Shown here: piece after piece, positions 29,905 through 64,000 of the stretch
Layout of the letters: the number at the start of each line of letters is the position of its first letter
Numbering within the stretch: the stretch's first letter is position 1
DNA from: an uncultured Pseudomonadales bacterium
GTDB lineage: Bacteria; Patescibacteriota; Microgenomatia; UBA1400; UBA12028
Assembly: GCA_964492495.1 (NCBI GenBank)
Contig: CAZBKJ010000001.1
Coordinates: forward strand, 2,251 to 66,250
Direction: 5' to 3'
Length of the DNA stretch: 64,000 nucleotides
Notes under the pieces: generated by a model
What the model saw: only the letters and a program-made list of their open reading frames with translations
Database searches by the model: none
Told to the model about the DNA's origin: nothing
Made by a program: the position numbers and the translations under genes

Positions 29905-31002
29905 GCCTTTGATGAAAATATCTAATCCAAACAATGCTAGAGATCCGAAAATAAGTACGAGTGCAATGTATACGGGAAAGACACGTTCTGTCAGATCTTC
30001 AAGAATAAGGTACAGCGGAATAACAAGACCAAGGTAGCGAGCATTTGAGAGCCAATACGTTTGGGATGCTACAAGAAAAAAATTTCCAAGAATCCATACA
30101 ATCCATATGAGATTTGCTTTTCTTCTTTTCACAACAAGATACAAAACCAAGAGAAGTGGTGTTCCGAGCGTGATCGTTTGATCAACAAGATAGGTTGGTA
30201 AATCTTGTCTGGGCAGCGTTGCCAGTTTTTGAAAAGAAAAAGACTGTACTTCTTCCTTGTAGCGCGAAATAGGATCTGTAGCTGTTTTATGCCAATTGTT
30301 TGCTTGAATTTTTTGCCATGCAAGGGGATCGTTGTACAGTGCGATATTGATACTGGTATAGAGTAGAAATCCTGAAAGGATAATCGCTACAGCAGATAGT
30401 TTCTGAACTTTTTGTTTGAAGTGAAGCGTGGTATCTAGAAGTATTGTTCCTGCAAAAGGGAGAATAAATAAGAGTCCAGGAAGTCTGGTCATTGTTGCAG
30501 TAGCCCCAGCAAAAGAGGCATAGAGGTATTTTTTTTGAACTAGCAGATAGAGAAACAAACACGTCAAAAGAAGGAAGAGTCCTTCAGTATACAAAAGCAT
30601 GAAGTAAACAGCAGTAGGGCTTACGCACAGTAGTACAAACGCACGTATTTTTTTGTGTTGGCTGTACCCAATTTTTTCTAGGTACAGCAAAAAAAACGCA
30701 TGACCCGCAATCGAGGTGATGGCTGTTATTGTGATCGCAGAAAGTGTGGGTGAGATATAAAAAAGTGGATTTGCTCTGATAAGTAGAGGATACAAAGGAT
30801 AAAAAACAATGAAATTCCGTTCATCACCACTTGTGGAATATCCGTGTTCTGCTAGATACAAATAGTGTCGTGCATCCCACATAGAAAAACGCTGTGAGAG
30901 AAGGGAAAGTGACACTGAGGAATTATTTTTGAAAAGAAAAATCCCGAGGACAGCAACAAGTACGACCTGGTACATAACAGACCAGACCAACGCCCTTTTC
31001 AT
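29890..31002 (-). CDS. GT-C mannosyltransferase, PIG-V/GT76-like
   Basis: SQRFSMWDARHYLYLAEHGY...FIVFYPLYPLLIR matches the WDa.hYl.IA..GY ... FFPlyP signature of Mannosyltransf_2 (PIG-V). About 9 TM helices. Confidence 0.5.
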   Translation of the reverse strand: MKRALVWSVMYQVVLVAVLGIFLFKNNSSVSLSLLSQRFSMWDARHYLYLAEHGYSTSGDERNFIVFYPLYPLLIRANPLFYISPTLSAITITAITSIAGHAFFLLYLEKIGYSQHKKIRAFVLLCVSPTAVYFMLLYTEGLFLLLTCLFLYLLVQKKYLYASFAGATATMTRLPGLLFILPFAGTILLDTTLHFKQKVQKLSAVAIILSGFLLYTSINIALYNDPLAWQKIQANNWHKTATDPISRYKEEVQSFSFQKLATLPRQDLPTYLVDQTITLGTPLLLVLYLVVKRRKANLIWIVWILGNFFLVASQTYWLSNARYLGLVIPLYLILEDLTERVFPVYIALVLIFGSLALFGLDIFIKGLWLY

Positions 31003-52079: not shown

Positions 52080-52085
52080 CACCTG

Positions 52086-52158
52086 TGACCCCACCCGAAT
52101 TCGAATCGGGGTTACCAGGATGAGAACCTGGTGTCCTAGGCCTCTAGACGATGGGGCC
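52086..52158 (-). tRNA. tRNA-Glu (anticodon CUC), 73 nt, CCA not encoded
   Basis: Reverse complement reads GGCCCCA-TC-GTC-TAGAGGCCTAG-GAC-A-CCAGG-TTCTCAT-CCTGG-TAAC-CCCGA-TTCGAAT-TCGGG-TGGGGTC-A. This gives a 7-bp acceptor stem (one GU), a 3-bp D stem as in bacterial tRNA-Glu, and a TTCGAAT T-loop. Confidence 0.85.
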
Positions 52159-52628: not shown

Positions 52629-52919
52629 TCATGTATTGTACTTGAGTTTTTCAAAAATATGTCTTAACTGTATCTTTAGCTCTTTTTTTCCTTTACCACC
52701 TTTTAGATAAGTTTCTCTCTGCTTTGCGTCACTTTGTTCGACATACGCTTCGTAATATATGAGGACAAGTGGTCTTCTATACTTTGTGGCACTTACGAAT
52801 CCGTTTACATGAGCTTTATATCGAGATTTCAAATCGTGCGTAAAACCCGTATAAAGTTGCTTGTCTTTTCCTGAATACAAGATGTACATGTAATACATTT
52901 GTACATTTAATTTTATCAC
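52629..52919 (-). CDS. GIY-YIG nuclease superfamily protein (second tandem copy)
   Basis: MYYMYILYSGKDKQLYTGFTHDLKSRYKAH; the true start is probably MYYMYIL (52895). Confidence 0.7.
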   Translation of the reverse strand: MIKLNVQMYYMYILYSGKDKQLYTGFTHDLKSRYKAHVNGFVSATKYRRPLVLIYYEAYVEQSDAKQRETYLKGGKGKKELKIQLRHIFEKLKYNT

Positions 52920-52930
52920 GAAATGGGAGG

Positions 52931-53500
52931 TCAGATTCGTTCAGCCTGGATGATGAGTCGCTTCGTATCTAGAAAGCCTGTACAGGTATAGATTGTCAGC
53001 AATTCACTTTCAGTCGGGGCAATGTACTCAAGCTTGTCTGGAGAGGTTGTGACTTTTTTCGTGATTGTATACTCAAAAACAGTTTCATTGGCGGTTGTGA
53101 CACTGATAGTTTCTCCCACATTCACCTCATGAAGCTTTCCGAGGAGCTTTTTGTTGTTGTGACCGTAAAAAACGGTATTTCCTGGCGTTCCAGGCAGGGA
53201 TGATTCACTCCAAAACACGACGTGTGTAGGGGAAAGTACCCAAAAATCGTTCTTTTTTGCAAAAGCCTCCACTGGAGCGTCAATTTTGTCGGCTATTTTG
53301 ATCTGAACGGGGAATGTTGGGACAGACTCAGTCATGTTTTCGTTGGTACGTTCTTCTCTTGCCTGGGTGACGATTTGTTCCTCCTTGAGTACAGAGATGA
53401 CTGAAAATCCTAAAAACAGGACTCCAAGGAACATGAACAGGACTCCAAACCGCGTTTTATGTTTGGAAATCTGCATACGAGTCCGTATTGATTTCTGCAT
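52931..53500 (-). CDS. sortase (class unassigned)
   Basis: N-terminal TM anchor; catalytic His in TVFYGHNN; TLxTC motif (LLTIYTCTG); beta-barrel length. Confidence 0.7.
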   Translation of the reverse strand: MQKSIRTRMQISKHKTRFGVLFMFLGVLFLGFSVISVLKEEQIVTQAREERTNENMTESVPTFPVQIKIADKIDAPVEAFAKKNDFWVLSPTHVVFWSESSLPGTPGNTVFYGHNNKKLLGKLHEVNVGETISVTTANETVFEYTITKKVTTSPDKLEYIAPTESELLTIYTCTGFLDTKRLIIQAERI

Positions 53501-53646
53501 ATATTTGTATTAAAAATTATGTAGAGTGTTGCTCTCACAACACCTATAGTAATGATTAAAAGACTATTATAGAGGAAGAACGCGTAAACGCAATGTTATA
53601 GGTCTTCTCGTGTGAAATCCCCTCTGAGGTGAACCAGAATTACTGT

Positions 53647-53676
53647 TTGACTATAGGATAGTATTCTTGGTATAAT
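53647..53676 (+). promoter_or_regulatory. sigma70-type promoter: -35 TTGACT, 18-nt spacer, extended -10 TGgTATAAT
   Basis: Read from the sequence about 50 nt upstream of the 1605-aa ORF. Confidence 0.55.
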
Positions 53677-53726
53677 CCACTTCGCTTTTCTATCTGGAGC
53701 CGAATGCTGAAAACATCCTTTTATTC

Positions 53727-56700
53727 ATGGCCAATCTTGACATTATCATTCCAGTCTTTAATGAAGAAGCGACCATTGGCCCGTTAATTTCGCGGATCGA
53801 TAAGATACTTCGCAAAGAACACATCCCATATCATATAATTGTTGTGGATGATCGCTCTACTGACAGAAGCCTAGAACGAGTAAAAAAGGCAAGTCAAAGT
53901 TTCCCAATCACAGTTCTTAAGAAAAAAGGCCAGCAAGGAAAAGCTTTTTCTATTCTTGAGGGTATAAAAGCCTCGACCAGTGACTACATCTGTATGATCG
54001 ATGCCGATCTGCAGTATCCTCCTGAAGCAATTCCAGCGTTGTTTGATCTTGCACAGATATCCGGTGTCGCAGTAGCTCGTCGTATCACCTACGGTGGTTC
54101 TGTTGTCAGACGTATTGGAAGCAGAATACTTGCTTTTGTCCTAGGAAAGCTTCTGCATGGAATCCACTGCGATATGCAGTCGGGACTTAAGGTTTTTAAG
54201 AAAGAAATCACTGAGTTTATTAATGTCGACGAGATTACTCCTTGGGCTTTTGATCTTCCATTACTTCATGCCGCCAAACAAATGGGGTATGACATAGCAG
54301 AAGTTCCTATCGATTTCACTGAACGAGAAAATGGTGATTCAAAACTCACTCTTCTTGGTCCAACTGTACAGATTGCCAAGGGCGCGCTTCGATTAAAGTT
54401 CACAACGATCCATCCGCGAGTGATTCTTCCAGATACAAAAGAATCCATGAAAGGTGCAGGTTTTGTCCATAAAGGCAAGCGATTTATCACGCACTCAACA
54501 CTTCATCACTCAAAGAGTGCACTGCTTGTGATAACCCCAAGTCAAAAAACAGTTTTCTTTATTATTCTTGCTCTTTTTTGTTTTGGGGCAGTATTTGCGA
54601 CACTTTTTACCTTTAAGATTGCTGTTGCCATACTTTCATTTGTCTACTTTATTGATGTGTTGTTTAACTTTTTCCTTATCCTTCGAAGTCTTCAATCACC
54701 TCCAGAAATTAGTTCAGACAAGAACGAGATCTTGGCACTCAAAGATAAAGATCTCCCTGTCTATTCGATTCTATGTCCGTTGTATAAGGAAGCCCATGTT
54801 ATTCCTCAATTTGTTGAAAGTATTTCCAATCTTGATTGGCCAAAATCAAAGCTTGAAGTAATGCTTCTCTTGGAAGAAGACGATACGGAGTCAATCGAAG
54901 CAGTCAAAGACATGAACTTGCCTTCATATATTCGAAGTGTCGTTGTTCCAAACTCTCAACCAAAAACCAAACCAAAAGCATGTAACTACGGACTCAGTCA
55001 CGCGAAAGGCGAGTACTTGGTCATTTTTGATGCAGAAGACAATCCAGATCCACTTCAATTAAAGAAAGCGTACTTGGGATTCCAGAAGGTTGGTCCAAAT
55101 ATTCGCTGTTTGCAAGCAAAGCTTAATTACTACAACCCAACACAAAATGTCCTTACCCGCATGTTTACTGCAGAGTATTCACTCTGGTTTGACGTCATTT
55201 TGACGGGACTTCAATCCATTCAAACGACAATTCCTTTGGGTGGAACCAGTAATCACTTCCGCACAAAAGATCTGTTGGAGCTTGAAGGATGGGATCCGTT
55301 TAACGTCACAGAAGACTGTGACCTCGGAATCAGACTGTTTAAGCACGGCTACAAAACCGCAATCATCGACTCAACGACTCTTGAAGAAGCAAACAGTAAT
55401 GTTCTCAACTGGATTAGACAGAGAAGCAGATGGATTAAAGGCTACATGCAGACATATCTTCTCCACATGCGAGATCCTTTAGACTTTTTTAGTACACAAG
55501 GAATTCATGCATTATTGTTCCAGCTGACCGTTGGTGGAAAGATTGCCTTTATTTTAATCAACCCAATTTTGTGGGTTTTGACGATTTTGTACTTTACCTT
55601 AAATGCAGTTGTCGGGCCGACGATCGAAGCTCTGTACCCGTCAATTGTGTTCTACATGGCCGTGACATCACTTGTTTTTGGAAACTTCATGTTTATTTAC
55701 TACTACATGTTGGGTGCAGCAAAGCGTGAACAGTGGTGGCTCATGAAATGGATCTATCTTGTTCCGATCTATTGGTTGATGGTCAGTGTGGCTGCCTGCA
55801 TGGCTCTGTATCAACTGATAGTAAAACCACACTACTGGGAAAAGACCATTCACGGTCTACACCTAAAAAAAAAGCTTGAAAATGAAGCAAAAGAGACTGC
55901 AAAGGTTGTAACTGCATCTATTTTAGCCGAAGTTGAAACCAAAAAACCTCCTGTACAGCCAAGTGAGAGCACAGCCTACACAAAAAAAAGAATACAGTCG
56001 TTTGGAGTTTTCTCAAATCTTTTGAAGTATCGAAGAAGTTTCACTGGTATTTTCTCCAAGATTATCAAAGGTGAGTATCGTGGAGGAGCTTTACTTGTAG
56101 CGGCAACGATGGCAGCAAATGTGCTGAACATGGGAACAAACTTCTACATGGGGCATGCACTACGATTGACTGATTTTGCACTCTTTAATACATACCTCAG
56201 TTTGTTAAACATTATCTCAATCTTTTCTTCATCGCTTGGAACAACTGTCAATCAACGCTCAGCACACTTACTTGGAAAAATTGGGCATACACGTGCCGTC
56301 AATTTCTGGAGACATATAAAGAATCGAGTATTCTTTGTTTCTCTTATCCTCACTGGGCTGTGGGTCATCTGTATCCCGATGACAAGTTCATTTTTAAGTA
56401 TTGATTCCAATATACCGCTCTTATTGTTTACTCCAATTTTGCTTCTTCTTGGTATTAATGCTGTGAATCAAGGGTATTTGCGTGGAGCACTCGCCTTTGA
56501 ACTCGTTGCTGTTGTGACGATACTTCAGCCACTGACCCGGTTACTATCGACGATAATTTTCGGAGAGCTCACCTATGGTGAGTATGCGTACTTGTCGATT
56601 CCTACCGGAGTTGTAGTTGCAGCATTGGTTTCTCACTTCTTTGCGAGAAAAGGTGAGTCTGTGGAGATTGCACACAAAGATTTGAAGCTTCCAAAGACAT

Positions 56701-58544
56701 TTTTCTTTTTGGCTTTGCTTGCGAACCTCTCTTCTATTGGGTTCTTTAGTCTTGATAACATTTTTGTGGCTCACTATCTGACTGCACAAGAAACTGGACA
56801 GTATGGAATTCTGGGACTACTTGGCAAAATGATCTTCTTCTCCGGAAGTCTGATTACCGGCTTTATCCTTCCGATTACGGCTTTTCGTGAAGGAAAAGGG
56901 TTGTCATCAGATGCTGTGTTCAAGAAACTGCTTCTTGTTACTGTCGCAATTTCAACCCTCGCCTTCTTGGCTATCGGGGTAGGAATTCCCCTCATTGCAC
57001 CATACATGTTTGGGGCGAAGATCAATGCAATCAGGCCGTTCCTGACACTCTATAGTGCAAGTATTCTCCTCTATACAGTTTCTCAGGCAATTGTTCAGTT
57101 TCATCTAGCAAAGAAGAACTATGTGTTTGCTGTGGCTTCATTTGCGGTCACCTTGATTCAAGGGCTTTTACTCGCGCTGTTTCATCGAACTTTGGGTGAA
57201 GTGGTCATCGCCATGTTTGCCACAAGTGTGGTGAATATCGGGGTTTTATTGATTCTTCATGTGTTTTTAGAGCGGGTCACGATCGTACTTTCAAACATCA
57301 GAGATTTCTTTGATCTGCTTTTTGGAAAACTGCGACAGTCTTCTCGTTCGTTTGAAAAGAAAGATACCTATAGAGTTCTCATCTTTAACTGGAGAGATAC
57401 AAAACATAAATGGGCAGGTGGAGCAGAGATGTATGTTCATGAAATGGCCAAGAATCTTGTCAAAAAAGGACACAAGGTTACGGTCTTTTGTGGAAACGAT
57501 GGGAAGTCAGTTCGAAATGAAGTTGTTGATGGAGTACAGGTGATTCGTCGCGGTGGATTTTATACGGTCTATTTCTGGGCGTTTTTATACTATACTCTTC
57601 GACTTCGAAACTATGTTGATATTGTTATCGATAGTGAAAATGGAATCCCATTTTTAACTCCATTCTATGTGCGAAAACCAATCTATTTACTGATTCATCA
57701 TGTGCATCAGGAAATATTTCGAACGCAACTGCGATTCCCTTTATCTGAAATTGCATTGTTTATCGAAGGTGACCTGATGCCATTCTCGTACAAGAGACAT
57801 TCAGTTATTACGGTTTCAGAGTCCTCAAAAGAAGAAATCATTGATCTGGGTCTTGGAAGTGCAAAGACTATCAAAGTCATCAACCCTGGAATCGATCATA
57901 GTTTGTTTGGTCGTCAAAAGAAAACAGCCTATCCATCTTTAGTATATGTTGGTAGGCTGAAACCATATAAGAATATTGACACTGCATTGTATGCGTTTGC
58001 GACTGTTTTGGAAAAGTTCCCGCAGGCAAAGTTCTCTATCGCTGGACTCGGAGAAAGCCTACGTTCCTTGAAAGAACTAGCAAAGAAATTAGAGATTGAA
58101 CATGCGGTGACATTCTTGCAAAAAATTGATGACAAAGAAAAAGCACGTTTATTTGCTCGAAGCTGGGTGGCAGTCCAGCCATCAATGATTGAAGGCTGGG
58201 GAATCACAGTCATTGAATCAAACGCATCTGGAACACCTGTCGTTGCTTCCAATGTCAAAGGACTCAAAGATTCCATCAAAGACAAAGAAACGGGAGTATT
58301 GGTAGAGGTTGCTAATACAAAAGCGTTCGCTACTGCCATCGTTGATCTCTTTTCAAATGAAAAGAAACGAAACCAGATGAGTGAATCCGCATTGAACTGG
58401 TCGCAAAAATTTACCTGGGAAATAAGCACAAAAGCGTTTGTAACGGAGTTTAATTCTGGAATGCATGTGGAAGCACAATCACGAAAGAAACTTTCGTTTG
58501 ATCGTATGCCTGTGACGGCAAAAATGTATGAAAAAAGTCGATAA
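53727..58544 (+). CDS. 1605-aa multidomain glycosyltransferase fusion: GT2 (DPM1-like), TM, processive GT2 (QxxRW), ~430-aa polytopic domain (flippase/polymerase-like), GT4
   Basis: Uninterrupted ORF in the track. GT2-1: IIIPVFNEE...VVDDRSTD...DADLQYP. GT2-2: VYSILCPLYKE...FDAEDNPDP...QRSRWIKG. Polytopic block of more than 12 hydrophobic helices spans residues ~760-1190. GT4: YRVLIFNWRDTKHKWAGGAEMY... and EGWGITVIESNASGTPVVAS...ETGVLVE (EX7E). Confidence 0.8.
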   Translation: MANLDIIIPVFNEEATIGPLISRIDKILRKEHIPYHIIVVDDRSTDRSLERVKKASQSFPITVLKKKGQQGKAFSILEGIKASTSDYICMIDADLQYPPEAIPALFDLAQISGVAVARRITYGGSVVRRIGSRILAFVLGKLLHGIHCDMQSGLKVFKKEITEFINVDEITPWAFDLPLLHAAKQMGYDIAEVPIDFTERENGDSKLTLLGPTVQIAKGALRLKFTTIHPRVILPDTKESMKGAGFVHKGKRFITHSTLHHSKSALLVITPSQKTVFFIILALFCFGAVFATLFTFKIAVAILSFVYFIDVLFNFFLILRSLQSPPEISSDKNEILALKDKDLPVYSILCPLYKEAHVIPQFVESISNLDWPKSKLEVMLLLEEDDTESIEAVKDMNLPSYIRSVVVPNSQPKTKPKACNYGLSHAKGEYLVIFDAEDNPDPLQLKKAYLGFQKVGPNIRCLQAKLNYYNPTQNVLTRMFTAEYSLWFDVILTGLQSIQTTIPLGGTSNHFRTKDLLELEGWDPFNVTEDCDLGIRLFKHGYKTAIIDSTTLEEANSNVLNWIRQRSRWIKGYMQTYLLHMRDPLDFFSTQGIHALLFQLTVGGKIAFILINPILWVLTILYFTLNAVVGPTIEALYPSIVFYMAVTSLVFGNFMFIYYYMLGAAKREQWWLMKWIYLVPIYWLMVSVAACMALYQLIVKPHYWEKTIHGLHLKKKLENEAKETAKVVTASILAEVETKKPPVQPSESTAYTKKRIQSFGVFSNLLKYRRSFTGIFSKIIKGEYRGGALLVAATMAANVLNMGTNFYMGHALRLTDFALFNTYLSLLNIISIFSSSLGTTVNQRSAHLLGKIGHTRAVNFWRHIKNRVFFVSLILTGLWVICIPMTSSFLSIDSNIPLLLFTPILLLLGINAVNQGYLRGALAFELVAVVTILQPLTRLLSTIIFGELTYGEYAYLSIPTGVVVAALVSHFFARKGESVEIAHKDLKLPKTFFFLALLANLSSIGFFSLDNIFVAHYLTAQETGQYGILGLLGKMIFFSGSLITGFILPITAFREGKGLSSDAVFKKLLLVTVAISTLAFLAIGVGIPLIAPYMFGAKINAIRPFLTLYSASILLYTVSQAIVQFHLAKKNYVFAVASFAVTLIQGLLLALFHRTLGEVVIAMFATSVVNIGVLLILHVFLERVTIVLSNIRDFFDLLFGKLRQSSRSFEKKDTYRVLIFNWRDTKHKWAGGAEMYVHEMAKNLVKKGHKVTVFCGNDGKSVRNEVVDGVQVIRRGGFYTVYFWAFLYYTLRLRNYVDIVIDSENGIPFLTPFYVRKPIYLLIHHVHQEIFRTQLRFPLSEIALFIEGDLMPFSYKRHSVITVSESSKEEIIDLGLGSAKTIKVINPGIDHSLFGRQKKTAYPSLVYVGRLKPYKNIDTALYAFATVLEKFPQAKFSIAGLGESLRSLKELAKKLEIEHAVTFLQKIDDKEKARLFARSWVAVQPSMIEGWGITVIESNASGTPVVASNVKGLKDSIKDKETGVLVEVANTKAFATAIVDLFSNEKKRNQMSESALNWSQKFTWEISTKAFVTEFNSGMHVEAQSRKKLSFDRMPVTAKMYEKSR

Positions 58545-59451
58545 CACAACTGTATTTCCAGCAAAAATACAACACTACACATTGTTTGAAGTTTTGTCAG
58601 ACATCAACGAAAAAAGTGCATATCATTTTGCGATCTACACAAACAGATCCGGAAAGAAGTTTTTTTGCAAGCTCTGGACTGGTGAAAAGAAGGATCAAGA
58701 TTTTACCTGGATAAGCAATGAAATCGGCGTGTACCAATTCTTTGATTCTACCTACAAAACGCATCAAAAAGAAATCAAAAAAAACTTTCCTGACATTAAA
58801 ATTCCAAAAATGTATGTTTCAAGCATAGAAGACTCACTAGCCTATTTCCTTACTGACTTTATTGAAGGTAAACCACTGGAAGGTTTGAGTGACGACAAGA
58901 AAGCTGTCGTTTTTCAACGAGTGATTCAGTATTTTCATTTCATGAGCTCACTGGCAGTTTCACAGCAAAAAACATTACGAGTTTTTGGAGCCACACGGTT
59001 GTTCTTACTTTTTCACTACTACATCATAAAAGTAGCTTTGAGTTCAAAAATTCATTACAAAAGTTTGCTTCAGATTCTTTGGAAGTTTTATGTCGGGTTT
59101 TTTGAGCTTATACGAACAAATCATTTGTCGTTTGTACATAGAGATCTGGGATTTGCTGATAACATTATTTTGCAAGGCAAAACGATTGCTATTATCGACT
59201 TTCAACTTTCAGTGCTTTCCAATCCACTCATGGAGATTGCAAATATCACAATCGCTTTGTGGAATGAAAAGAAACTTCGTACCAAGTTCTTAAACTCTCG
59301 ATATGTAAGTAGTTTACTTGATGATGAAGGAAAGAAAAAACAAATGAATGCCTTCTTAGCTCATGCATTTTTAGTATCAACCGCACTGCAGTTAAATCTC
59401 AAGAAGTTTAATGGAACGTATATGATCAAACGATTTTCACCAATCGTGTAG
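58528..59451 (+). CDS. protein-kinase-like fold phosphotransferase (APH/choline-kinase family)
   Basis: SFVHRDLGFADNIIL (HxD...N catalytic loop) and IAIIDFQ (DFG-equivalent). Confidence 0.5.
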   Translation: MKKVDNTTVFPAKIQHYTLFEVLSDINEKSAYHFAIYTNRSGKKFFCKLWTGEKKDQDFTWISNEIGVYQFFDSTYKTHQKEIKKNFPDIKIPKMYVSSIEDSLAYFLTDFIEGKPLEGLSDDKKAVVFQRVIQYFHFMSSLAVSQQKTLRVFGATRLFLLFHYYIIKVALSSKIHYKSLLQILWKFYVGFFELIRTNHLSFVHRDLGFADNIILQGKTIAIIDFQLSVLSNPLMEIANITIALWNEKKLRTKFLNSRYVSSLLDDEGKKKQMNAFLAHAFLVSTALQLNLKKFNGTYMIKRFSPIV

Positions 59452-59463
59452 AACACTCTTCTT

Positions 59464-60384
59464 ATGAAAAAACCTTCAGTGTCTATCGCGATTCCAGCAT
59501 ATAACGAAGAAACGATGATTGAGTCGGTTCTTCTGTCGCTTGTGGCGCAAAAAGCGAAAAAAATATCACTGACTGATATTACGATCTATTCAGACAATAG
59601 CACCGATAAAACCCATGCAATTGTTCGAAGTCTTGCAAAGAAATACACGCTTATCAAACTCAAAGCAAGTACACAGAGAATTGGGAAATACTACCGAATG
59701 GGTCAGATGTTTGCACACTGCACCAGTGATGCTCTTGTGGTTTTGGATGCGGATATTGCGATTGTTCAAGATAATTTTTTGGAAAAGCTAGTCGAGGTTC
59801 TGGTAAAAGATCCCAAAGCCACAATGGTCGCTGCTCATCAGAAGTTGATTCGACCAAAAGATGTGATGGGGAAGATACTGCACACCCATTTTGTTCTCTG
59901 GGATTTTGTACGATGGAGTGTTCTTGACTTCCAAAACGCCAATAATTTTTATGGCTCAGCTACCGCATTTCGTGGTTCATTTGCTCGAAGTATCAAGATA
60001 CCAAAAAACCTCACTGATCCACATCTCTACTTGTACTTACTTGCAGACAAAGTAAAAGGGTTTCGCTATACAATGAACGCTGTTATTTTACAACAATCGA
60101 TCAGTACCTGGAGTGATTTCGAAAAGTTCTTGGACAGACCATTGGGCAAAAAAGATGAGGAGCTAGAAAAAATTACTGGTGTTGATTCAGAGACAGTTCA
60201 CCTTATACCTTGGAAATATAAAATCAAGGGAATACTTCGCTGTTTCTTGTGGCAACCGATCTATACTTTTCCGGCTCTTGCCCTCGTGGTGTATATGAAA
60301 ATACGTCCCGCGAAGAAAACCTACACATCTTCGCTCTGGAAGATTGTGAAGTCTACCAAAAAACCCATTTCCCATGAAAACTAA
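59464..60384 (+). CDS. glycosyltransferase family 2
   Basis: VSIAIPAYNEE...IYSDNSTD...LDADIAIV (the DxD region). Confidence 0.8.
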   Translation: MKKPSVSIAIPAYNEETMIESVLLSLVAQKAKKISLTDITIYSDNSTDKTHAIVRSLAKKYTLIKLKASTQRIGKYYRMGQMFAHCTSDALVVLDADIAIVQDNFLEKLVEVLVKDPKATMVAAHQKLIRPKDVMGKILHTHFVLWDFVRWSVLDFQNANNFYGSATAFRGSFARSIKIPKNLTDPHLYLYLLADKVKGFRYTMNAVILQQSISTWSDFEKFLDRPLGKKDEELEKITGVDSETVHLIPWKYKIKGILRCFLWQPIYTFPALALVVYMKIRPAKKTYTSSLWKIVKSTKKPISHEN

Positions 60385-61483
60385 CAAGCGCCTGCGTGTC
60401 GTATTCTCTAGTTACGATGATGTTACCAACCCCTATTATGCAGGTGGTGGTGCTCGTGCAATTCATGAAGTTGCAAAAAACATGCGACAAGATTTTGATA
60501 TTCGTGTAATTAGTTGGAATCATAGTGGGAAATCACATGAAAAAATTGACGGAGTTACCTATAGACGAATTGGCTTTTCCTTCATCCCGCCAAGAGTTGG
60601 GATGTTTTTGTTTCAGCTGTTGTTACCGCTGTTTTGTCTAACCCAATCATTTGATGTGTGGATTGAGAGCTTTGGACCTCCATTTACCACGTCATTCTTA
60701 CCTTGGTTTACGCGTAAACCTGTGGTTGGTGTAGTTCATATGCTTGCGTCTGCTGAAATTAAAAGAAAATATGGAATCGATCTTTCTTCACTCGAAAATC
60801 TTGGAATTTCCCAATACTCAAAAATCATAGCGACTCAGCCAGCCATGCAAAAAGAAATTATGAGAATCAATCCTCAAGTTGTCTGCAGTGTGATTGAAAA
60901 TGGAGTAAACCTGCCAACTATTTCAAGAAAAGAGAAGAACACAATTCTTTTCCTGGGGCGAATAGAAATGAATCAAAAAGGCATTGACTTGCTTTTGAAG
61001 ATATTCTCACTCTTACCTGTGAAGTTTCAACAGCGATACACATTAGCTATTGCGGGTAGTGGCTTGAAAAAAGAAGAAGAGAAACTCAAAAAAGCGATTG
61101 CCGCTGTAAACAAACATGGCTCGATACAGTTTTTAGGAAGGGTAGAAGGAACGAAAAAAGAAACATTGCTTGCAGAGTCTTTATGTATGATGATTACATC
61201 CAGGTTTGAAACCTACTCGATGGTGGCACTTGAAGCCTTGATTTCTGGATTACCAGTCCTGTGTTTTGATATCCCAGGTTTACAGTGGATGCCAGAAAAT
61301 GGAGTGAAAAAAATACCAAGCTTTGATACCAAGAAGTTCTCATCCTCACTTCGACTTCTGCTTGAAGATACGCAGTCACGAAAACGGATGAGTACAGCTG
61401 GAAGAGCATACGCAAAAACTCGTACTTGGGATCATGTCGCTGATGCCTATATCTCGTATATACACAAACAGTTCTCTGTATGA
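60374..61483 (+). CDS. glycosyltransferase family 4
   Basis: GT-B C-terminal lobe with E..7..E (ETYSMVALEALISGLPVLCFD). Confidence 0.8.
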   Translation: MKTNKRLRVVFSSYDDVTNPYYAGGGARAIHEVAKNMRQDFDIRVISWNHSGKSHEKIDGVTYRRIGFSFIPPRVGMFLFQLLLPLFCLTQSFDVWIESFGPPFTTSFLPWFTRKPVVGVVHMLASAEIKRKYGIDLSSLENLGISQYSKIIATQPAMQKEIMRINPQVVCSVIENGVNLPTISRKEKNTILFLGRIEMNQKGIDLLLKIFSLLPVKFQQRYTLAIAGSGLKKEEEKLKKAIAAVNKHGSIQFLGRVEGTKKETLLAESLCMMITSRFETYSMVALEALISGLPVLCFDIPGLQWMPENGVKKIPSFDTKKFSSSLRLLLEDTQSRKRMSTAGRAYAKTRTWDHVADAYISYIHKQFSV

Positions 61484-62241
61484 TTTCCAATTCACTTGTC
61501 ACTAAAATCATTGAAAGCAAAAAAGAATGTGTGTTTATTTCACCACATTTTGATGATGTCATCCTTTCATGCGGTGAGCTTTTGCGACAGCTATCAGGCA
61601 AAGTGACGATCACTGTCGTAAACGTCTTTACCAAAGCACATTCAGGTCCGTACACAATCTCGGCAAAGAAGTTTTTGAAAGATTCAGGACACACAATGGA
61701 TGCTGTGAAACTGTATAAGAAGCGTCTTTTGGAAGATACAGATGCTTTTGCTGAGTTTGATGTCAAGGTAGTGAATCTTGGGCTGACGGATGCTCTTTTT
61801 CGAAAAAAGAAAAATCCATCTATATTCGGAAAAGTGCTTGCTGAGTTTGATCATGTCTACCCTACATACCGATGGCATATGACAGCACTATCATCCAAAG
61901 ATGAGGCACTGACAACCTTAGAAAGCAAATTGCATGCGTACACTGGAGAAGACACCCTAGTGTTTTCTCCTATTGGGATTGGCAGTCATGTCGACCATCT
62001 TGTTGTGAAAAAAGTATGCGAAAAGTTGTTCCCGCATATCGTTTTTTATGAAGATTTTCCATACAACGTGCGAATTGGTCAAACAAAACAGCAAACGTCA
62101 CTCAAAGAACGATTTGAAGTCGTTCCCACAATGGAGCAGAAAACCAAAGATATTCAAAAATACGCTTCACAATATGTTGGCCTTTTTGAAGGAAAAAGCG
62201 TACCTCTACACACTGAAGTGTATTTTTCAAAAGCACTATGA
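61480..62241 (+). CDS. PIG-L/LmbE family N-acetylglucosaminyl deacetylase
   Basis: ISPHFDDVILSCGE and GIGSHVDHLVV (the metal-binding HxDD/HxxH motifs of PF02585). Confidence 0.75.
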   Translation: MISNSLVTKIIESKKECVFISPHFDDVILSCGELLRQLSGKVTITVVNVFTKAHSGPYTISAKKFLKDSGHTMDAVKLYKKRLLEDTDAFAEFDVKVVNLGLTDALFRKKKNPSIFGKVLAEFDHVYPTYRWHMTALSSKDEALTTLESKLHAYTGEDTLVFSPIGIGSHVDHLVVKKVCEKLFPHIVFYEDFPYNVRIGQTKQQTSLKERFEVVPTMEQKTKDIQKYASQYVGLFEGKSVPLHTEVYFSKAL

Positions 62242-63302
62242 TCACAACAAAAAAATTTACCACACTCGATGAATCATTTCTCTCCGAATGGTTAGAACTC
62301 TGGAAGAATTCGTCAGAGAAAAATTTTGTGAACTCACCTGCGTGGATCGCTGCGATCAAAGAAGCATTTGGATTTACAGAGAATGTGTTTATAGGGGTGT
62401 ATAAAAACTCAGAACTGGTAGGGGCTGCTGGCTTTGTAAAAGAGAAAAGATTTGGACTTTCGTGCTACACCGTTCCTCCTGGTGATTTCGTCTCAGGCGT
62501 ACCACTACTTCTAGACTCGAGCGACTTTGCTGTGGTACGTGCATTTGTAAGGGAGTTTGTACAACTTGGCACTGTATTTTTTGACAATGTTCCAGAATCC
62601 TTTGTATCCGTACTTCAAAAAGAGACAACAAAGATTCTGGCTGTGCCTTTTAGTATCAATTTGTTCCTTCGATTTGAAGCTGATGAGAAGGGAAAAGTAA
62701 TCATCACCAAACGAAAAAGGCTTCTTCGGGAGTCAAAGCCAATCGAAGATAAAATTCGGTTTGAGTCCTTTGAAGGAAACAATGAAGAGCTTTTGCAAAT
62801 TGCTTTCGACATTGATCGTAAAAGCACAAAACACAGTAAAGGCTACGATGCATTTGCTGATAAAACTATCCAGAAATTTTATCGCTCTCTTGCGAGCTAT
62901 TTTGGTTCGTACCTGCGACTAAACTTCTTGTATATCGATAGCGTACCGGTAGTCTATGAGATGGGATTTTTGATTGGGGATACGTACTACGGTAGTCAAA
63001 TTGCATTTGATGAAAAATACAGAGAGTTCTCACCGGGTAAAGCATTTGAAGTGAAGCTCATTGAATGGCTCTTTGCAAATGAAGTGAAAAAGATTGATTA
63101 CGGTTCAGGAGATAACTTTATTAAACGCACACTGTGTACTGAGCACAACCAACTGTATAAAGTCGTTGTATCTGCAAACATTTTTGTGAGGCTGTATATA
63201 GGTTTGTTATATTTTTCTAAAGATCGTGTCTTTACATTTCTGACAAATAATCCACGACTGTACTCACTGTATCGTTCTATCCGAAAAAGCATTGGACTAT
63301 GA
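62238..63302 (+). CDS. FemAB-like/BioF2-like GNAT acyltransferase (Acetyltransf_6 / CelD-like)
   Basis: 354 aa; WLELWKNSSEKNFVNSPAWIAA...; C-terminal GNAT core (KIDYGSGDNFIKR). Confidence 0.5.
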   Translation: MITTKKFTTLDESFLSEWLELWKNSSEKNFVNSPAWIAAIKEAFGFTENVFIGVYKNSELVGAAGFVKEKRFGLSCYTVPPGDFVSGVPLLLDSSDFAVVRAFVREFVQLGTVFFDNVPESFVSVLQKETTKILAVPFSINLFLRFEADEKGKVIITKRKRLLRESKPIEDKIRFESFEGNNEELLQIAFDIDRKSTKHSKGYDAFADKTIQKFYRSLASYFGSYLRLNFLYIDSVPVVYEMGFLIGDTYYGSQIAFDEKYREFSPGKAFEVKLIEWLFANEVKKIDYGSGDNFIKRTLCTEHNQLYKVVVSANIFVRLYIGLLYFSKDRVFTFLTNNPRLYSLYRSIRKSIGL

Positions 63303-64000
63303 ACAGATACACCATACAAATATTCCAGCAGGTTGACGATCAATTGAAAAAATCTTGGAGAGAATTGTGGGAAACAAGTAGTAACGGAAATGTCTTTAAT
63401 TCGTACGAGTGGTTTGAGATGAGTCTTCAATCACTTTCGTTTACTCGCTATGAAATTGTCGCCTGTTTTGAAGGAAAGAAGCTCGTAGCAGTATTCCCGC
63501 TCACACCATCCAAATGCTTTGGAATACCAGTATGGGTACCAGTCGGACATGAGTTTATTGTCGATACAACACTGCTACTTCAAGATTATTCAAAAGAGTT
63601 GGTTTCTTTCTTTTTTTCTCAGGTTTTGAGAAATAGGAATGTGTACATAACAACGCTCGATGAACGGATCGTGTCGCTTCTTTCGGAGATCGATTCAAAG
63701 CTCTTTTTCTCGCTTATTTCTGTGAATCCATACATTGATTTTGGTAAAGATCCACTTCGATATGTCTCAGGTTCAAATAAAAAAACGATGCGTAAAGTTA
63801 TCAAAAATATGGGGTCTGACCTCGAGTTTGTCGAGTGTGTCACTCAAGAAGAGAAGGAAGAAGGATTTGCCAAAATGGTTGAAATTGAGCAAAAGAGCAG
63901 TAAAAAACAGCAGTCTAAGGATATCTTCGCCAAAGCTGAAAATGTCAATTTTTACTCGAATATAGTAAAATACAGTGGTAGGTTCGTGAGAATCTTTTTT
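63299..64000 (+). CDS. second FemAB-like/BioF2-like GNAT acyltransferase (paralog), truncated by the window end
   Basis: Hand-translated MNRYTIQIFQQVDDQLKKSWRELWETSSNGNVFNSYEWFEM... parallels the N-terminus of the preceding gene. ATGA start/stop overlap; not in the ORF track because no stop falls in the window. Confidence 0.5.
   Translation, partial: MNRYTIQIFQQVDDQLKKSWRELWETSSNGNVFNSYEWFEMSLQSLSFTRYEIVACFEGKKLVAVFPLTPSKCFGIPVWVPVGHEFIVDTTLLLQDYSKELVSFFFSQVLRNRNVYITTLDERIVSLLSEIDSKLFFSLISVNPYIDFGKDPLRYVSGSNKKTMRKVIKNMGSDLEFVECVTQEEKEEGFAKMVEIEQKSSKKQQSKDIFAKAENVNFYSNIVKYSGRFVRIFF

Follow-up and report, generated by a model that had tools for sequence, protein, structure and literature searches.

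A candidate sugar-tailoring cassette between conserved genes of a Patescibacteria surface-glycoconjugate locus

What could be made by a kinase, two glycosyltransferases, a deacetylase and two related acyltransferases, encoded one after the other behind a giant glycosyltransferase, is the question raised by the end of the window, the whole 64,000-nucleotide stretch of DNA analysed here. An ORF check of the sequence found six ORFs, all on the forward strand and all with an ATG start, from 58528 to the window end, and their directions, starts and junctions are as a previous sequence-only reading had described them. The features of the region are the following:

52931..53500, - strand, sortase gene (Pfam Sortase, E 1.4e-20), divergent from the locus
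53647..53676, + strand, sigma-70-like promoter, TTGACT-18-TATAAT with an extended -10 TG, a consensus match only
53727..58544, + strand, giant multidomain glycosyltransferase, 1605 aa, the conserved "backbone" gene
58528..59451, + strand, APH/ChoK-type kinase, 307 aa
59464..60384, + strand, GT2, 306 aa
60374..61483, + strand, GT4, 369 aa
61480..62241, + strand, PIG-L/LmbE, 253 aa
62238..63302, + strand, AT6A (PF13480), 354 aa
63299..64000, + strand, AT6B (PF13480), cut by the window end; full length 366 aa (P0011)

The giant glycosyltransferase and kinase genes overlap by 17 nt and, of the five junctions within the six genes, four are overlaps (11 nt at GT2/GT4 and a 4-nt ATGA at each of GT4/PIG-L, PIG-L/AT6A and AT6A/AT6B) and one, kinase/GT2, is a 12-nt gap (59452-59463). 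Comparison shows that these are genuine genes and not chance ORFs, because about 19 independent loci have orthologs in the same order, with protein identities of 31-65%. The best promoter-like site of the region 52800-64000 (53647-53676, 11/12 matches) lies about 50 nt upstream of the giant glycosyltransferase gene, and a consensus scan of the same region found no comparable forward-strand site inside the cluster. This predicted promoter is probably the start of the transcription unit holding the six genes and, since the only near-consensus site is upstream of the giant glycosyltransferase, they most likely form the middle of a longer unit rather than a separate operon. The junctions agree with the co-directional, overlapping arrangement described earlier, and the unit would extend upstream, to the giant glycosyltransferase and the promoter, and past the window end. 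According to hydrophobicity prediction, the cassette proteins have no TM segments and would therefore act on the cytoplasmic face.

The giant glycosyltransferase opens with an ArnC/GtrB/DPM1-like GT2, after which come predicted TM segments. A second GT2, of processive-synthase-like type, carries a QRSRW motif and has TM helices; it is followed by a MOP/Wzx-like flippase region (about aa 780-1185), and a GT4 lies at the C-terminus. In all, the protein has about 14-16 hydrophobic segments. Its Pfam/NCBIfam profile matches are to ArnC (E 1.4e-20, aa 3-210), PgaC/IcaA (E 8.2e-29, aa 329-700), CelA (E 4.1e-22) and GT4, and a stand-alone gene of locus L006 that matches Polysacc_synt_3 shares 33% identity with aa 784-1184. 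Orthologs of this 1605-aa protein, whose co-occurrence with the cassette had been put forward as a check, are found near the cassette in 11/11 loci with enough flanking sequence.

Downstream of the cassette, related loci encode X and Y, two polytopic membrane proteins, then Z, a membrane-anchored secreted protein, and W, a sortase-type substrate; the window ends inside AT6B, and these four are inferred for the source genome from its relatives. X is a putative membrane glycosyltransferase, and the model of Y has a GT-C fold at moderate confidence (pLDDT 75.8). The Y family counts more than 2000 proteins, is unannotated, and its named members come from Patescibacteria. X-Y lies near the cassette in 11/11 evaluable loci. 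W, with which the conserved part of the locus ends in relatives, carries an LAxTG-type sorting signal, and a sortase gene also follows the locus in L006; a link between the sortase of the window and the glycan locus is possible.

Synteny comparison, as the sequence-only reading had advised, found the gene order conserved in relatives at 31-54% identity. Within the cassette, GT4, PIG-L and AT6A form in this order an invariant core, to which AT6B and GT2 are usual additions and the kinase a rare one. L015 and L016 keep the giant glycosyltransferase and X-Y around other middle cassettes, made up of GT4, DegT and GT2 genes and, in L016, also of an APH::CE4 fusion, and in L025 the giant glycosyltransferase gene and X-Y-Z form one contiguous block, from which the cassette is detached and to which it is convergent. 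As the flanks (giant glycosyltransferase; X-Y-Z-W) are kept and the middles differ, we regard the six genes as a variable tailoring cassette within a surface-glycoconjugate locus that is itself conserved, and the word "accessory" used for them before is apt, related genomes keeping the giant glycosyltransferase and the downstream genes and swapping the cassette.

GT2 is a soluble enzyme of the GT-A fold family with a DAD motif and no TM segments (Pfam Glycos_transf_2, E 8.6e-22), whose orthologs (39-65% identity) stand right before GT4 in most loci and are missing from L011 and L014. GT4, of the GT-B fold family (Pfam Glycos_transf_1, E 9.3e-26), lies directly upstream of PIG-L in 14/14 evaluable loci; its NCBIfam similarities, to MshA, BshA and GlcNAc-PG synthase among others, are weak and all far below cut-offs. 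To our knowledge, every well-studied pair of a GT4 and an LmbE/PIG-L enzyme transfers GlcNAc and then deacetylates it, exposing an amine; such pairs are MshA/MshB, BshA/BshB, PIG-A/PIG-L and the glycosyltransferase and deacetylase of 2-DOS aminoglycosides. With the deacetylase as its invariant partner, GT4 is probably a GlcNAc transferase. The PIG-L protein itself is a soluble member of the zinc de-N-acetylase family (PF02585, 35.9 bits, cut-off 28.2), in which 9 orthologs keep the motifs P22-H23-x-D25-D26 and H170-x-D172-H173 without change, and its gene is directly upstream of AT6A in 16/17 evaluable loci.

The kinase, also soluble, passes Pfam APH (PF01636) marginally (24.3 bits, cut-off 23.2), so that the three families proposed earlier, PF01636, PF02585 and PF13480, hold, the first of them narrowly. 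Its catalytic set (K48, E65, H204-R205-D206, N212, D224) is conserved, and its PDB profile matches to Ser/Thr kinases are as weak as those to choline kinases. It is the least conserved member of the cassette, with orthologs in 2/19 loci, the window and L002; its slot holds an extra GT2 in L018 and L023, and in L016 the same position is taken by the APH::CE4-deacetylase fusion, to whose kinase domain it is 24% identical (E 1e-8). Among 39 multidomain relatives the fusion partners are PIG-L (12), CE4 deacetylase (4), GT2 (5), GT4 (1) and PF13480 (1), and these recurrent fusions tie the family to sugar chemistry and not to protein phosphorylation. The relatives match APH in 26/39 cases and Pkinase in 2/39, which, with the fusions, speaks against the Ser/Thr protein kinase without sugar link that the sequence-only reading had kept in mind. 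We consider it an accessory component and, probably, a sugar kinase.

AT6A is a tandem-GNAT protein that matches Pfam Acetyltransf_6 (PF13480; 59.5 bits, cut-off 22) and, in the same Pfam search, not FemAB (PF02388); a PDB sequence search gave no sequence-level match for AT6. Its AF2 model (pLDDT 90.2, pTM 0.86) ends in a helical, partly hydrophobic extension, which suggests membrane association. The best Foldseek match of the model is FemX of W. viridescens (E 5e-15, TM 0.68/0.72), the second Sba18/Sbb17 (TM 0.62/0.75), a structure solved with the amino sugar substrate streptothrisamine, and other top matches are FemA and aa-PG synthases. Relatives are few, only 7-11 in 5.8e9 proteins by word-indexed search. 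The part of AT6B inside the window has no Pfam match. Over 234 aa it agrees at 100% identity with a 366-aa NCBI protein, P0011, which lies on the same 81,241-bp contig and has a precomputed PF13480 match. With the second PF13480 gene of a relative, L002, which is full-length and scores 73 bits on PF13480, it shares 45% identity. AT6B follows AT6A in 14/18 loci, the two share about 23-27% identity and the invariant family residues, and in a tree they form two clean clades of mirrored topology; they are paralogs that diverged long ago and were inherited together. Of the two FemAB-like acyltransferases first announced, the tandem pair stands; the Pfam family is PF13480 and not FemAB, and the likeness to FemX is structural.

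Observed are the arrangement of the genes, their families and folds, the conserved catalytic motifs, the strict adjacency of GT4, PIG-L and AT6A, the modularity of the cassette and the kinase fusions. The reading we somewhat favour is that of a cytoplasmic tailoring cassette of a Patescibacteria (Saccharimonadales-type) surface-glycoconjugate locus, with a scheme for which we infer every substrate, every donor and the reaction order. The cassette probably turns N-acetylglucosamine into an amino-acid- or acyl-decorated glucosamine. The conserved flanks would be the machinery, with a giant glycosyltransferase in which one GT2 resembling polyprenyl-phosphate-sugar synthases and another resembling processive synthases are joined to a MOP flippase and a GT4, and the cassette would set the chemistry of one sugar unit. 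GT4 would place GlcNAc on a membrane-bound (lipid-linked) acceptor at the cytoplasmic face, PIG-L/LmbE would remove the N-acetyl group to give GlcN, and the freed amine would be substituted by the FemX-like AT6A and then by AT6B. The soluble GT2 would add a further sugar, and the APH-like kinase, where present, would phosphorylate a sugar hydroxyl. The MOP domain would then flip the product, and GT-C enzymes would transfer or extend it outside the membrane; the locus itself shows no initiating phosphoglycosyltransferase.

The fold similarity of AT6A does not determine the donor, and we favour aminoacyl-tRNAs, to which we give an even chance and which would yield aminoacyl- or dipeptidyl-GlcN. 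A real but lesser possibility leaves the role of the cassette unchanged and makes AT6A and AT6B acyl-CoA-dependent N-acyltransferases that place a non-acetyl acyl group on the GlcN amine, with no tRNA, by the deacetylate/re-acylate logic of the teicoplanin type or as proposed for HfsK after HfsH deacetylation, where the authors suggest acyl transfer to the amines exposed by the deacetylase (PMC5362036). PF13480 belongs to the GNAT clan and bears the name of an acetyltransferase family, and among the acetyl-CoA tandem GNATs, which give significant but weaker structural matches, is a glucosamine N-acetyltransferase (5kf1). The AT6 family also has an invariant S/x-P-G-K segment after the central strand of the second GNAT domain, a position that, from the sequence, we take to be where GNATs bind CoA pyrophosphate. 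Against such a donor, the ten best structural neighbours of AT6A are all aminoacyl-tRNA-dependent (TM 0.55-0.72) whereas the acetyl-CoA tandem GNATs reach TM 0.38-0.47, and swapping acetyl for another short acyl group requires a second acyl-CoA pool, in organisms thought to be poor in such pools.

It is improbable that the product is a soluble small molecule, either a mycothiol-/bacillithiol-like GlcN conjugate or an aminoglycoside-like compound with the APH kinase for self-resistance, the giant glycosyltransferase being an incidental neighbour. GT4 with LmbE, amine substitution and a tandem GNAT mirror MshA/MshB/MshC/MshD, the weak NCBIfam similarities of GT4 include MshA and BshA, and the APH kinases, DegT aminotransferases and FAD enzymes of related loci resemble aminoglycoside clusters; but the cassette sits between the giant glycosyltransferase and X-Y in 11/11 evaluable loci, a place that other sugar-tailoring cassettes take in its stead, overlapping genes link it to the giant glycosyltransferase, the hydrophobic C-terminal helix of AT6A points to the membrane, and the loci showed neither an MshC/BshC-type ligase nor an inositol-phosphate synthase nor a 2-deoxy-scyllo-inosose synthase. 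Very improbably, AT6A and AT6B build peptidoglycan interpeptide bridges like FemX/A/B and merely lie beside a glycan operon, as FemX as top structural match and the Gram-positive-like, sortase-bearing wall of Patescibacteria might suggest, against which stand the lack of a PF02388 match, loci without mur/peptidoglycan genes, the adjacency of AT6A to PIG-L (16/17 loci) and an AT6 subfamily very rare (11 proteins by word-indexed search) beside the more than 2000 of Y, unlike a core wall function.

Among known systems, FemX, FemA and FemB share the tandem-GNAT fold with AT6A and include paralogs acting in series; AT6A differs by having no PF02388 match, no peptidoglycan context and another C-terminal extension, and the coiled-coil insertion of FemA is not predicted in it. 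Orf11, FemABX-like and Gly-tRNA-dependent, aminoacylates streptothrisamine, an amino-sugar intermediate (PMC12945691). Orf11 and Sba18/Sbb17 (streptothricin-type, BD-12) resemble AT6A in fold, amino-sugar aminoacylation by aminoacyl-tRNA being a feature of Orf11, but belong to a Streptomyces secondary-metabolite pathway with a soluble substrate, have only 10-11% identity and form no paralog pair.

That paired FemAB-like paralogs are unusual outside peptidoglycan synthesis, as had been claimed, is overstated, since HfsK of the Caulobacter holdfast polysaccharide pathway is a FemX-like tandem GNAT with two paralogs, CC2278 and CC1244, in a pathway that also has the deacetylase HfsH; its C-terminal extension is needed for membrane association (PMC5362036). 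HfsH/HfsK share with the cassette, by description, a polysaccharide pathway with de-N-acetylation and FemX-like tandem-GNAT paralogs, and the C-terminal extension of AT6A recalls that of HfsK. By contrast, HfsH is a CE4 enzyme where the cassette has PIG-L, c-di-GMP control is not indicated here, and HfsK is no guide to donor or acceptor.

Compared with Arn (L-Ara4N lipid A modification) and the Gtr/CsbB-GtcA-YfhO lipid-carrier glycosylation systems, the locus has PIG-L instead of CE4 as its deacylase and a MOP-type flippase that is part of the giant glycosyltransferase, and it adds a synthase-like GT2 as well as two GT-C paralogs and a pair of FemX-like enzymes. The core pathway of the eukaryotic GPI anchor (PIG-A, PIG-L, PIG-M and other GT-C enzymes, DPM1) differs in that there is no sign here of a phosphatidylinositol acceptor, ethanolamine-phosphate transferases or a transamidase, and the FemX-like step of the cassette has no GPI counterpart. 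As proposed for the cassette, the mycothiol and bacillithiol pathways place an LmbE/PIG-L zinc deacetylase (MshB, BshB) directly after a GT4 GlcNAc transferase (MshA, BshA) and then attach an amino acid to the GlcN amine so exposed, and MshD is a tandem GNAT; the cassette differs by having no MshC/BshC-type ATP-dependent ligase, by GNATs that are FemX-like PF13480 proteins and by its place in a membrane glycan-assembly locus instead of a soluble thiol pathway. The cassette is a new combination of known enzyme types, not a new kind of system.

The six genes lie on the forward strand directly after a giant glycosyltransferase (GT) gene, and a mechanical ORF list reproduced the coordinates that the sequence-only reading had given for all six of them, a kinase, a GT2, a GT4, a PIG-L deacetylase and the two paralogous tandem-GNAT proteins AT6A and AT6B:

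52931-53500 (-), sortase, divergent, upstream of the giant GT
53727-58544 (+), giant GT, 1605-aa ORF directly before the six genes
58528-59451 (+), kinase, 307 aa, ATG start
59464-60384 (+), GT2, 306 aa, ATG start
60374-61483 (+), GT4, 369 aa, ATG start
61480-62241 (+), PIG-L, 253 aa, ATG start
62238-63302 (+), AT6A, 354 aa, ATG start
from 63299 (+), AT6B, ATG start, running past the end of the window

The giant GT and kinase genes overlap by 17 nt, a 12-nt gap (59452-59463) separates the kinase from the GT2, the GT2 and GT4 genes overlap by 11 nt, and the GT4/PIG-L, PIG-L/AT6A and AT6A/AT6B junctions are each a 4-nt ATGA overlap. By consensus matching, a promoter-like site was found upstream of the giant GT at 53647-53676 (TTGACT-18-TATAAT, 11/12 plus TG) and no other near-consensus site in 52800-64000, so that the six genes appear to lie in the middle part of a longer transcription unit, as far as such sequence signals tell. 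No convincing internal terminator was found, the terminator-like sites numbering 10 against 8.3 expected. Two antisense ORFs, one of 217 aa over the giant GT/kinase junction (57929-58582, -) and one of 190 aa over the GT4 and PIG-L genes (61194-61766, -), are most likely shadow ORFs. A tRNA-Glu(CUC) at 52085-52158 (-), about 1.5 kb upstream of the locus, is the sole RNA gene detected in the window.

The domains that had been proposed for the kinase and the deacetylase both score above the Pfam thresholds, the kinase marginally (APH, PF01636; 24.3 bits, cut-off 23.2) and PIG-L (PF02585) with 35.9 bits where the gathering score is 28.2 (E 1.2e-8, covering positions 1-126 of the 129 in the model). 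All 9 PIG-L orthologs compared keep P22-H23-F-D25-D26 and H170-V-D172-H173; we take an (A/P)-H-x-D-D near the N-terminus with a later H-x-x-H to be the zinc/catalytic signature of MshB/LmbE enzymes and, judged by these residues, this signature is intact. The GT2 (Pfam E 8.6e-22) carries a DAD motif and the GT4 (Pfam E 9.3e-26) an E-x7-E motif. No TM segments are predicted in the kinase, GT2, PIG-L or AT6A, and the cassette would thus work on the cytoplasmic side.

The kinase residues K48, E65, H204-R205-D206, N212 and D224, which correspond to the beta3 Lys, the alphaC Glu, HRD...N and the metal-binding Asp, are kept in the proteins of the window and of the related loci L002 and L016. Profile matches in the PDB are equally weak to choline kinases, Ser/Thr kinases and a hygromycin kinase (E 1e-4 to 1e-3). 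An exhaustive search returned 214 cluster representatives of the family at E <= 1e-10, and among 39 multidomain relatives APH is matched by 26 (best E 3e-18) and Pkinase by 2; the fusion partners are PIG-L (12), GT2 (5), the CE4 polysaccharide deacetylase (4) and, more rarely, GT4, PF13480 and DUF2334 (1 each). GrpB is also a partner, in 6/39. The window kinase is 24% identical over 231 residues (E 1e-8) to the kinase half of an APH::CE4 fusion that occupies the equivalent position in L016. With PIG-L, CE4, GT2, GT4 and PF13480 among the partners, fusions of this "Rosetta-stone" kind would link the kinase to the same sugar-deacetylation/tailoring chemistry and argue for a sugar substrate. A Ser/Thr protein kinase with no sugar link, the case that the sequence-only reading had named against itself, was set aside in view of the fusions to deacetylases and GTs and the predominance of APH over Pkinase matches.

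Fusions of the kinase family to CE4 (Polysacc_deac_1) or PIG-L were recorded at L016:6644-8416, in the database protein P0145 and in 15 further proteins. Another APH-like gene, L004:3514-4545 (343 aa, Pfam APH E 2.4e-8), lies after AT6B rather than before the GT2; in its product Ala replaces the catalytic Asp (HRALH...N), and by this substitution the kinase may be inactive or divergent. The idea that a divergent kinase hides in the 1-kb gaps of L018 and L023 was rejected, the slot where the window has its kinase being filled there by an extra GT2.

AT6A matches Acetyltransf_6 (PF13480; CelD/BioF2-like GNAT) with 59.5 bits against 22, and this family only, with no match to FemAB (PF02388) at E <= 0.01. 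The 234 residues of AT6B within the window have no Pfam match alone; all 234 are identical to P0011, a 366-aa NCBI protein of the same 81,241-bp contig that represents full-length AT6B and is precomputed as PF13480, and AT6B is 45% identical to the full-length second PF13480 gene of L002, itself at 73.1 bits on that model. AT6A and AT6B are about 23-27% identical to each other. The profile of the AT6 family has no match among PDB sequences at E <= 10, and relatives were sought with the predicted structure of AT6A (pLDDT 90.2, pTM 0.86). Its best structural neighbour is W. viridescens FemX (7z6a; E 5e-15, TM 0.68/0.72), with TM 0.62/0.75 for Sba18/Sbb17, aminoacyl-tRNA-dependent peptide synthases whose structures were solved with the amino sugar streptothrisamine; S. 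aureus FemX/FemA are among the next-best matches, the alanyl-/lysyl-PG synthase domains of MprF give TM ~0.55 and acetyl-CoA-dependent tandem GNATs 0.38-0.47, and the best 10 matches are all aminoacyl-tRNA-dependent enzymes. The model confirms a FemX-type tandem-GNAT fold outside Pfam FemAB; the earlier description of the pair as FemAB-like holds for the predicted fold and fails for the sequence family, which is PF13480. K296 is invariant in AT6 and is a candidate, from the alignment, for the equivalent of the catalytic K305 of FemX.

The AT6 subfamily is rare: word-indexed searches returned 7, then 11 proteins among 5.8 billion, and pattern scans of genome and metagenome collections, for which an AT6A-only alignment served as query, the combined AT6A and AT6B alignment being too diverse, gave another dozen loci. 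In a neighbour-joining tree the AT6 proteins fall cleanly into clades A and B, whose internal topologies mirror each other; this indicates, at the level of sequence, an old duplication with both copies co-inherited. That paired FemAB-like paralogs are unusual outside peptidoglycan, as had been remarked, is partly right, with a polysaccharide counterexample in Caulobacter: HfsK, a FemX-like tandem GNAT with two paralogs, acts in a polysaccharide pathway with the deacetylase HfsH and needs a C-terminal extension for membrane association (PMC5362036). AT6A also has a C-terminal extension, of two extra helices, one of them hydrophobic. A literature search for PF13480 function gave nothing relevant and no reported donor for PF13480 tandem GNATs, HfsK included. 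By analogy, a direct precedent for the aminoacylation proposed below would be Orf11 of the BD-12 pathway, documented in a review as FemABX-like and dependent on Gly-tRNA, which aminoacylates streptothrisamine, an amino sugar intermediate (PMC12945691).

A tblastn search with the window proteins over all collected loci gave about 19 distinct AT6A-encoding loci; each count takes in only those loci where the relevant flank exists. The sequence-only reading had proposed to compare synteny and co-occurrence with the 1605-aa gene, and both bear it out: gene order is kept in the relatives, and the giant GT is <= 10 kb away in 11/11 loci. The consensus order is giant GT-(kinase)-GT2-GT4-PIG-L-AT6A-AT6B-[0-3 kb insert]-X-Y-Z-W, where X (~530 aa), Y (~543 aa), Z (~330-420 aa) and W (~190 aa) are genes seen downstream in the relatives and predicted from them for the window genome. 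The GT4 is immediately 5' of PIG-L in 14/14 loci and PIG-L immediately 5' of AT6A in 16/17, the exception (L007) being the most divergent AT6A copy, whose sole neighbour is a GT2; AT6B immediately follows AT6A in 14/18, a GT2 is present in 12 loci, X-Y are close by in 11/11, and the kinase ortholog is confined to the window and L002.

One or two FAD_binding_3-type monooxygenase genes recur between AT6B and X, mostly on the opposite strand (L006:12143-14891 (-), L010, L012/L022, L019, L023, L024:11202-12527, L028 and L018:17685-18977). The loci nearest the window lack them where this stretch is available (L002, L004, L008). Their products may contribute an additional, oxidative step to the tailoring. 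Orf1 of the BD-12 pathway, which N-formimidoylates glycinothricin, is likewise an FAD enzyme (PMC10156733).

The named relatives are labelled Candidatus Saccharimonadales or "Patescibacteria group", and the many orphan ORFs of the window, its sortase and its 38-45% GC are consistent with a placement in Patescibacteria. Some carriers of the locus have deviant MAG labels (Pseudomonadales, Gammaproteobacteria, Candidatus Sulfotelmatobacter, Methylomirabilota; records L009, CAYOQI010000003.1; L011, CAZLSZ010000010.1; L012, DATMOG010000031.1; and P0078) and are probably mis-binned contigs or wrongly labelled. Upstream of the locus in L006 (1-973, -) lies a gene for a WhiB-domain protein of 591 aa; WhiB proteins are chiefly known from Actinobacteria, and gene exchange with actinobacterial hosts may be its source.

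For a survey of the locus we used Y, its best-conserved protein (55-81% identity), as probe. Two loci of other lineages keep the giant GT and X-Y around different middle cassettes: L015 has two GT4, a DegT aminotransferase and three GT2, and L016 a GT4, DegT, GT2 and the APH::Polysacc_deac_1 fusion of 590 aa. In L025, giant GT-X-Y-Z are contiguous and a GT2-GT4-PIG-L-AT6A(-GT4-DegT) cassette stands convergent beside the block. Since the flanks are kept with different cassettes, the six genes form, by gene content, the variable "tailoring" centre between the conserved flanks of the locus.

In these flanks, the N-terminal GT2 of the giant GT resembles ArnC/PgfS/Dol-P-hexose transferases (E 1.4e-20, for ArnC, to 2.2e-14), with scores all far below the equivalog cut-offs, and TM segments are predicted after it; next comes a GT2 resembling PgaC/cellulose synthase, with TM helices and a QRSRW motif, then a polytopic part and a C-terminal GT4. 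The polytopic segment of the window alone has no Pfam match and is 33% identical to a stand-alone ortholog in L006 that matches Polysacc_synt_3 (MOP flippase; E 1.6e-6). X matches the NCBIfam model "LA_3751/LA_3752 putative glycosyltransferase" (E 1.6e-12). Neither X nor Y has a Pfam match, and the profiles of X, Y and Z found nothing meaningful among PDB sequences, so that a fold search was needed; in the predicted structure Y (L002:13789-15420, ~543 aa, homologs P0012-P0131 among >2000) would have a GT-C glycosyltransferase fold. The family of Y comprises at least 2007 proteins, all of them "hypothetical" and covered by no Pfam or NCBIfam model, the named ones coming from Patescibacteria, and an N-D-A-R-S-H segment in the first loop after TM1 is invariant. 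In Z, an N-terminal membrane anchor accompanies a conserved domain whose GEFG and ECENG motifs recall, in our reading, clan GH-A hydrolases. W carries a signal peptide and a linker rich in Pro/Thr or Gly/Ser/Thr, and its C-terminal sorting signal, [L/F/I]A-x-T-G, comes with a hydrophobic helix and a basic tail; the divergent sortase of the window and another after W in L006 (20049-20603) fit W as a sortase substrate.

Elsewhere in the window, two ORFs that overlap (26609-28261 and 28258-29904, +) encode 550 and 548 aa and include hydrophobic stretches; their only family match is a weak one to DUF6798 (E 8.7e-5), and they were rejected as X/Y paralogs, showing no similarity despite their like size and pairing. 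The ORF at 29890-31002 (-) weakly matches a "cell surface glycopolymer formation protein" family (E 4.8e-4).

To our knowledge, all characterised pairs of a GT4 and an LmbE/PIG-L enzyme add GlcNAc and then remove its acetyl group, exposing an amine. Such pairs are MshA/MshB, BshA/BshB, PIG-A/PIG-L and the GT/deacetylase pairs of 2-deoxystreptamine aminoglycosides, and the exposed amine then stays free or receives an amino acid. Putting the invariant order of GT4, PIG-L and AT6A together with the FemX-like fold and the streptothrisamine precedent, we propose that GlcNAc would be transferred to a membrane-bound acceptor and de-N-acetylated, and that the freed amine would be substituted by AT6A, then AT6B. 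As optional steps, the GT2 would glycosylate and the kinase phosphorylate; the product would be flipped by the MOP domain and used outside the membrane by X and Y as GT-C enzymes, and candidates for the final acceptor are a wall polymer, a glycolipid and the Pro/Thr-rich linker of W. Every substrate assignment in this scheme is one that we infer.

That the donors of AT6A and AT6B are aminoacyl-tRNAs, as for the closest structural neighbours of AT6A, we consider about evenly balanced. The pair may instead re-acylate the amine from acyl-CoA, a reading that keeps the same architecture and changes the donor alone, and which we hold to be somewhat unlikely though serious; acetyl-CoA-dependent enzymes are the more distant in structure. 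A soluble mycothiol- or aminoglycoside-like product, to which a GT4/deacetylase pair might also lead, is improbable, as the cassette is embedded between membrane glycan-assembly genes in 11/11 loci and no ligase or cyclitol genes were seen in the loci, an MshC/BshC-type cysteine ligase being absent from every fetched locus. Peptidoglycan bridge formation, however FemX-like the pair, is very improbable given AT6A's place beside PIG-L and GT4, the absence of mur/peptidoglycan genes from any examined locus, the rarity of the subfamily and the missing PF02388 match.

On the aminoacyl-tRNA reading, we put forward, as a tentative and rather doubtful proposal, that the paired FemX-like enzymes build an aminoacyl or dipeptidyl group from aminoacyl-tRNAs on the de-N-acetylated glucosamine of a lipid-linked surface glycoconjugate, giving a tRNA-dependent "peptido-sugar" in the primary envelope metabolism of Patescibacteria, displayed by the GT-C machinery, possibly on LAxTG-anchored W, and varying between lineages like O-antigen. 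We know of tRNA-dependent aminoacyl chemistry so far only in peptidoglycan stems, membrane lipids (MprF) and a few antibiotics.

The enzyme families are all known and glycan-tailoring gene clusters are commonplace. What is new is the invariant GT4-PIG-L-FemX-like triad with its second FemX-like paralog, the place of this triad among several cassettes exchanged for one another in a widespread and so far undescribed locus of Patescibacteria, the large unannotated family of Y with its predicted GT-C fold, and a kinase family in which fusion to PIG-L or CE4 deacetylases is habitual. Patescibacteria, as far as cultivated, live attached to host cells, and surface chemistry is therefore central to their biology. 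Our literature search found no description of this locus or of Patescibacteria (CPR) surface glycoconjugates; the EPS genes SEML1_0081-0083 are reported to be important in Southlakia (PMC10633639). With conserved flanks and a variable centre, the widespread locus is a testable candidate for lineage-specific surface decoration, and the triad is a tractable system for asking whether PF13480 tandem GNATs use aminoacyl-tRNA and, as a second question, which function the fused PIG-L/kinase family has. If the chemistry is only N-re-acylation of a polysaccharide, this would be an ordinary though well-delimited glycan-tailoring cassette.

Among known systems, O-antigen and capsule loci have a like organisation of conserved flanks and variable centre, and the overall logic of the locus parallels that of Arn (ArnC/ArnD/ArnT), of Gtr/CsbB-YfhO and of GPI core assembly, the L016 cassette with its DegT, GT2 and CE4 being strikingly Arn-like.
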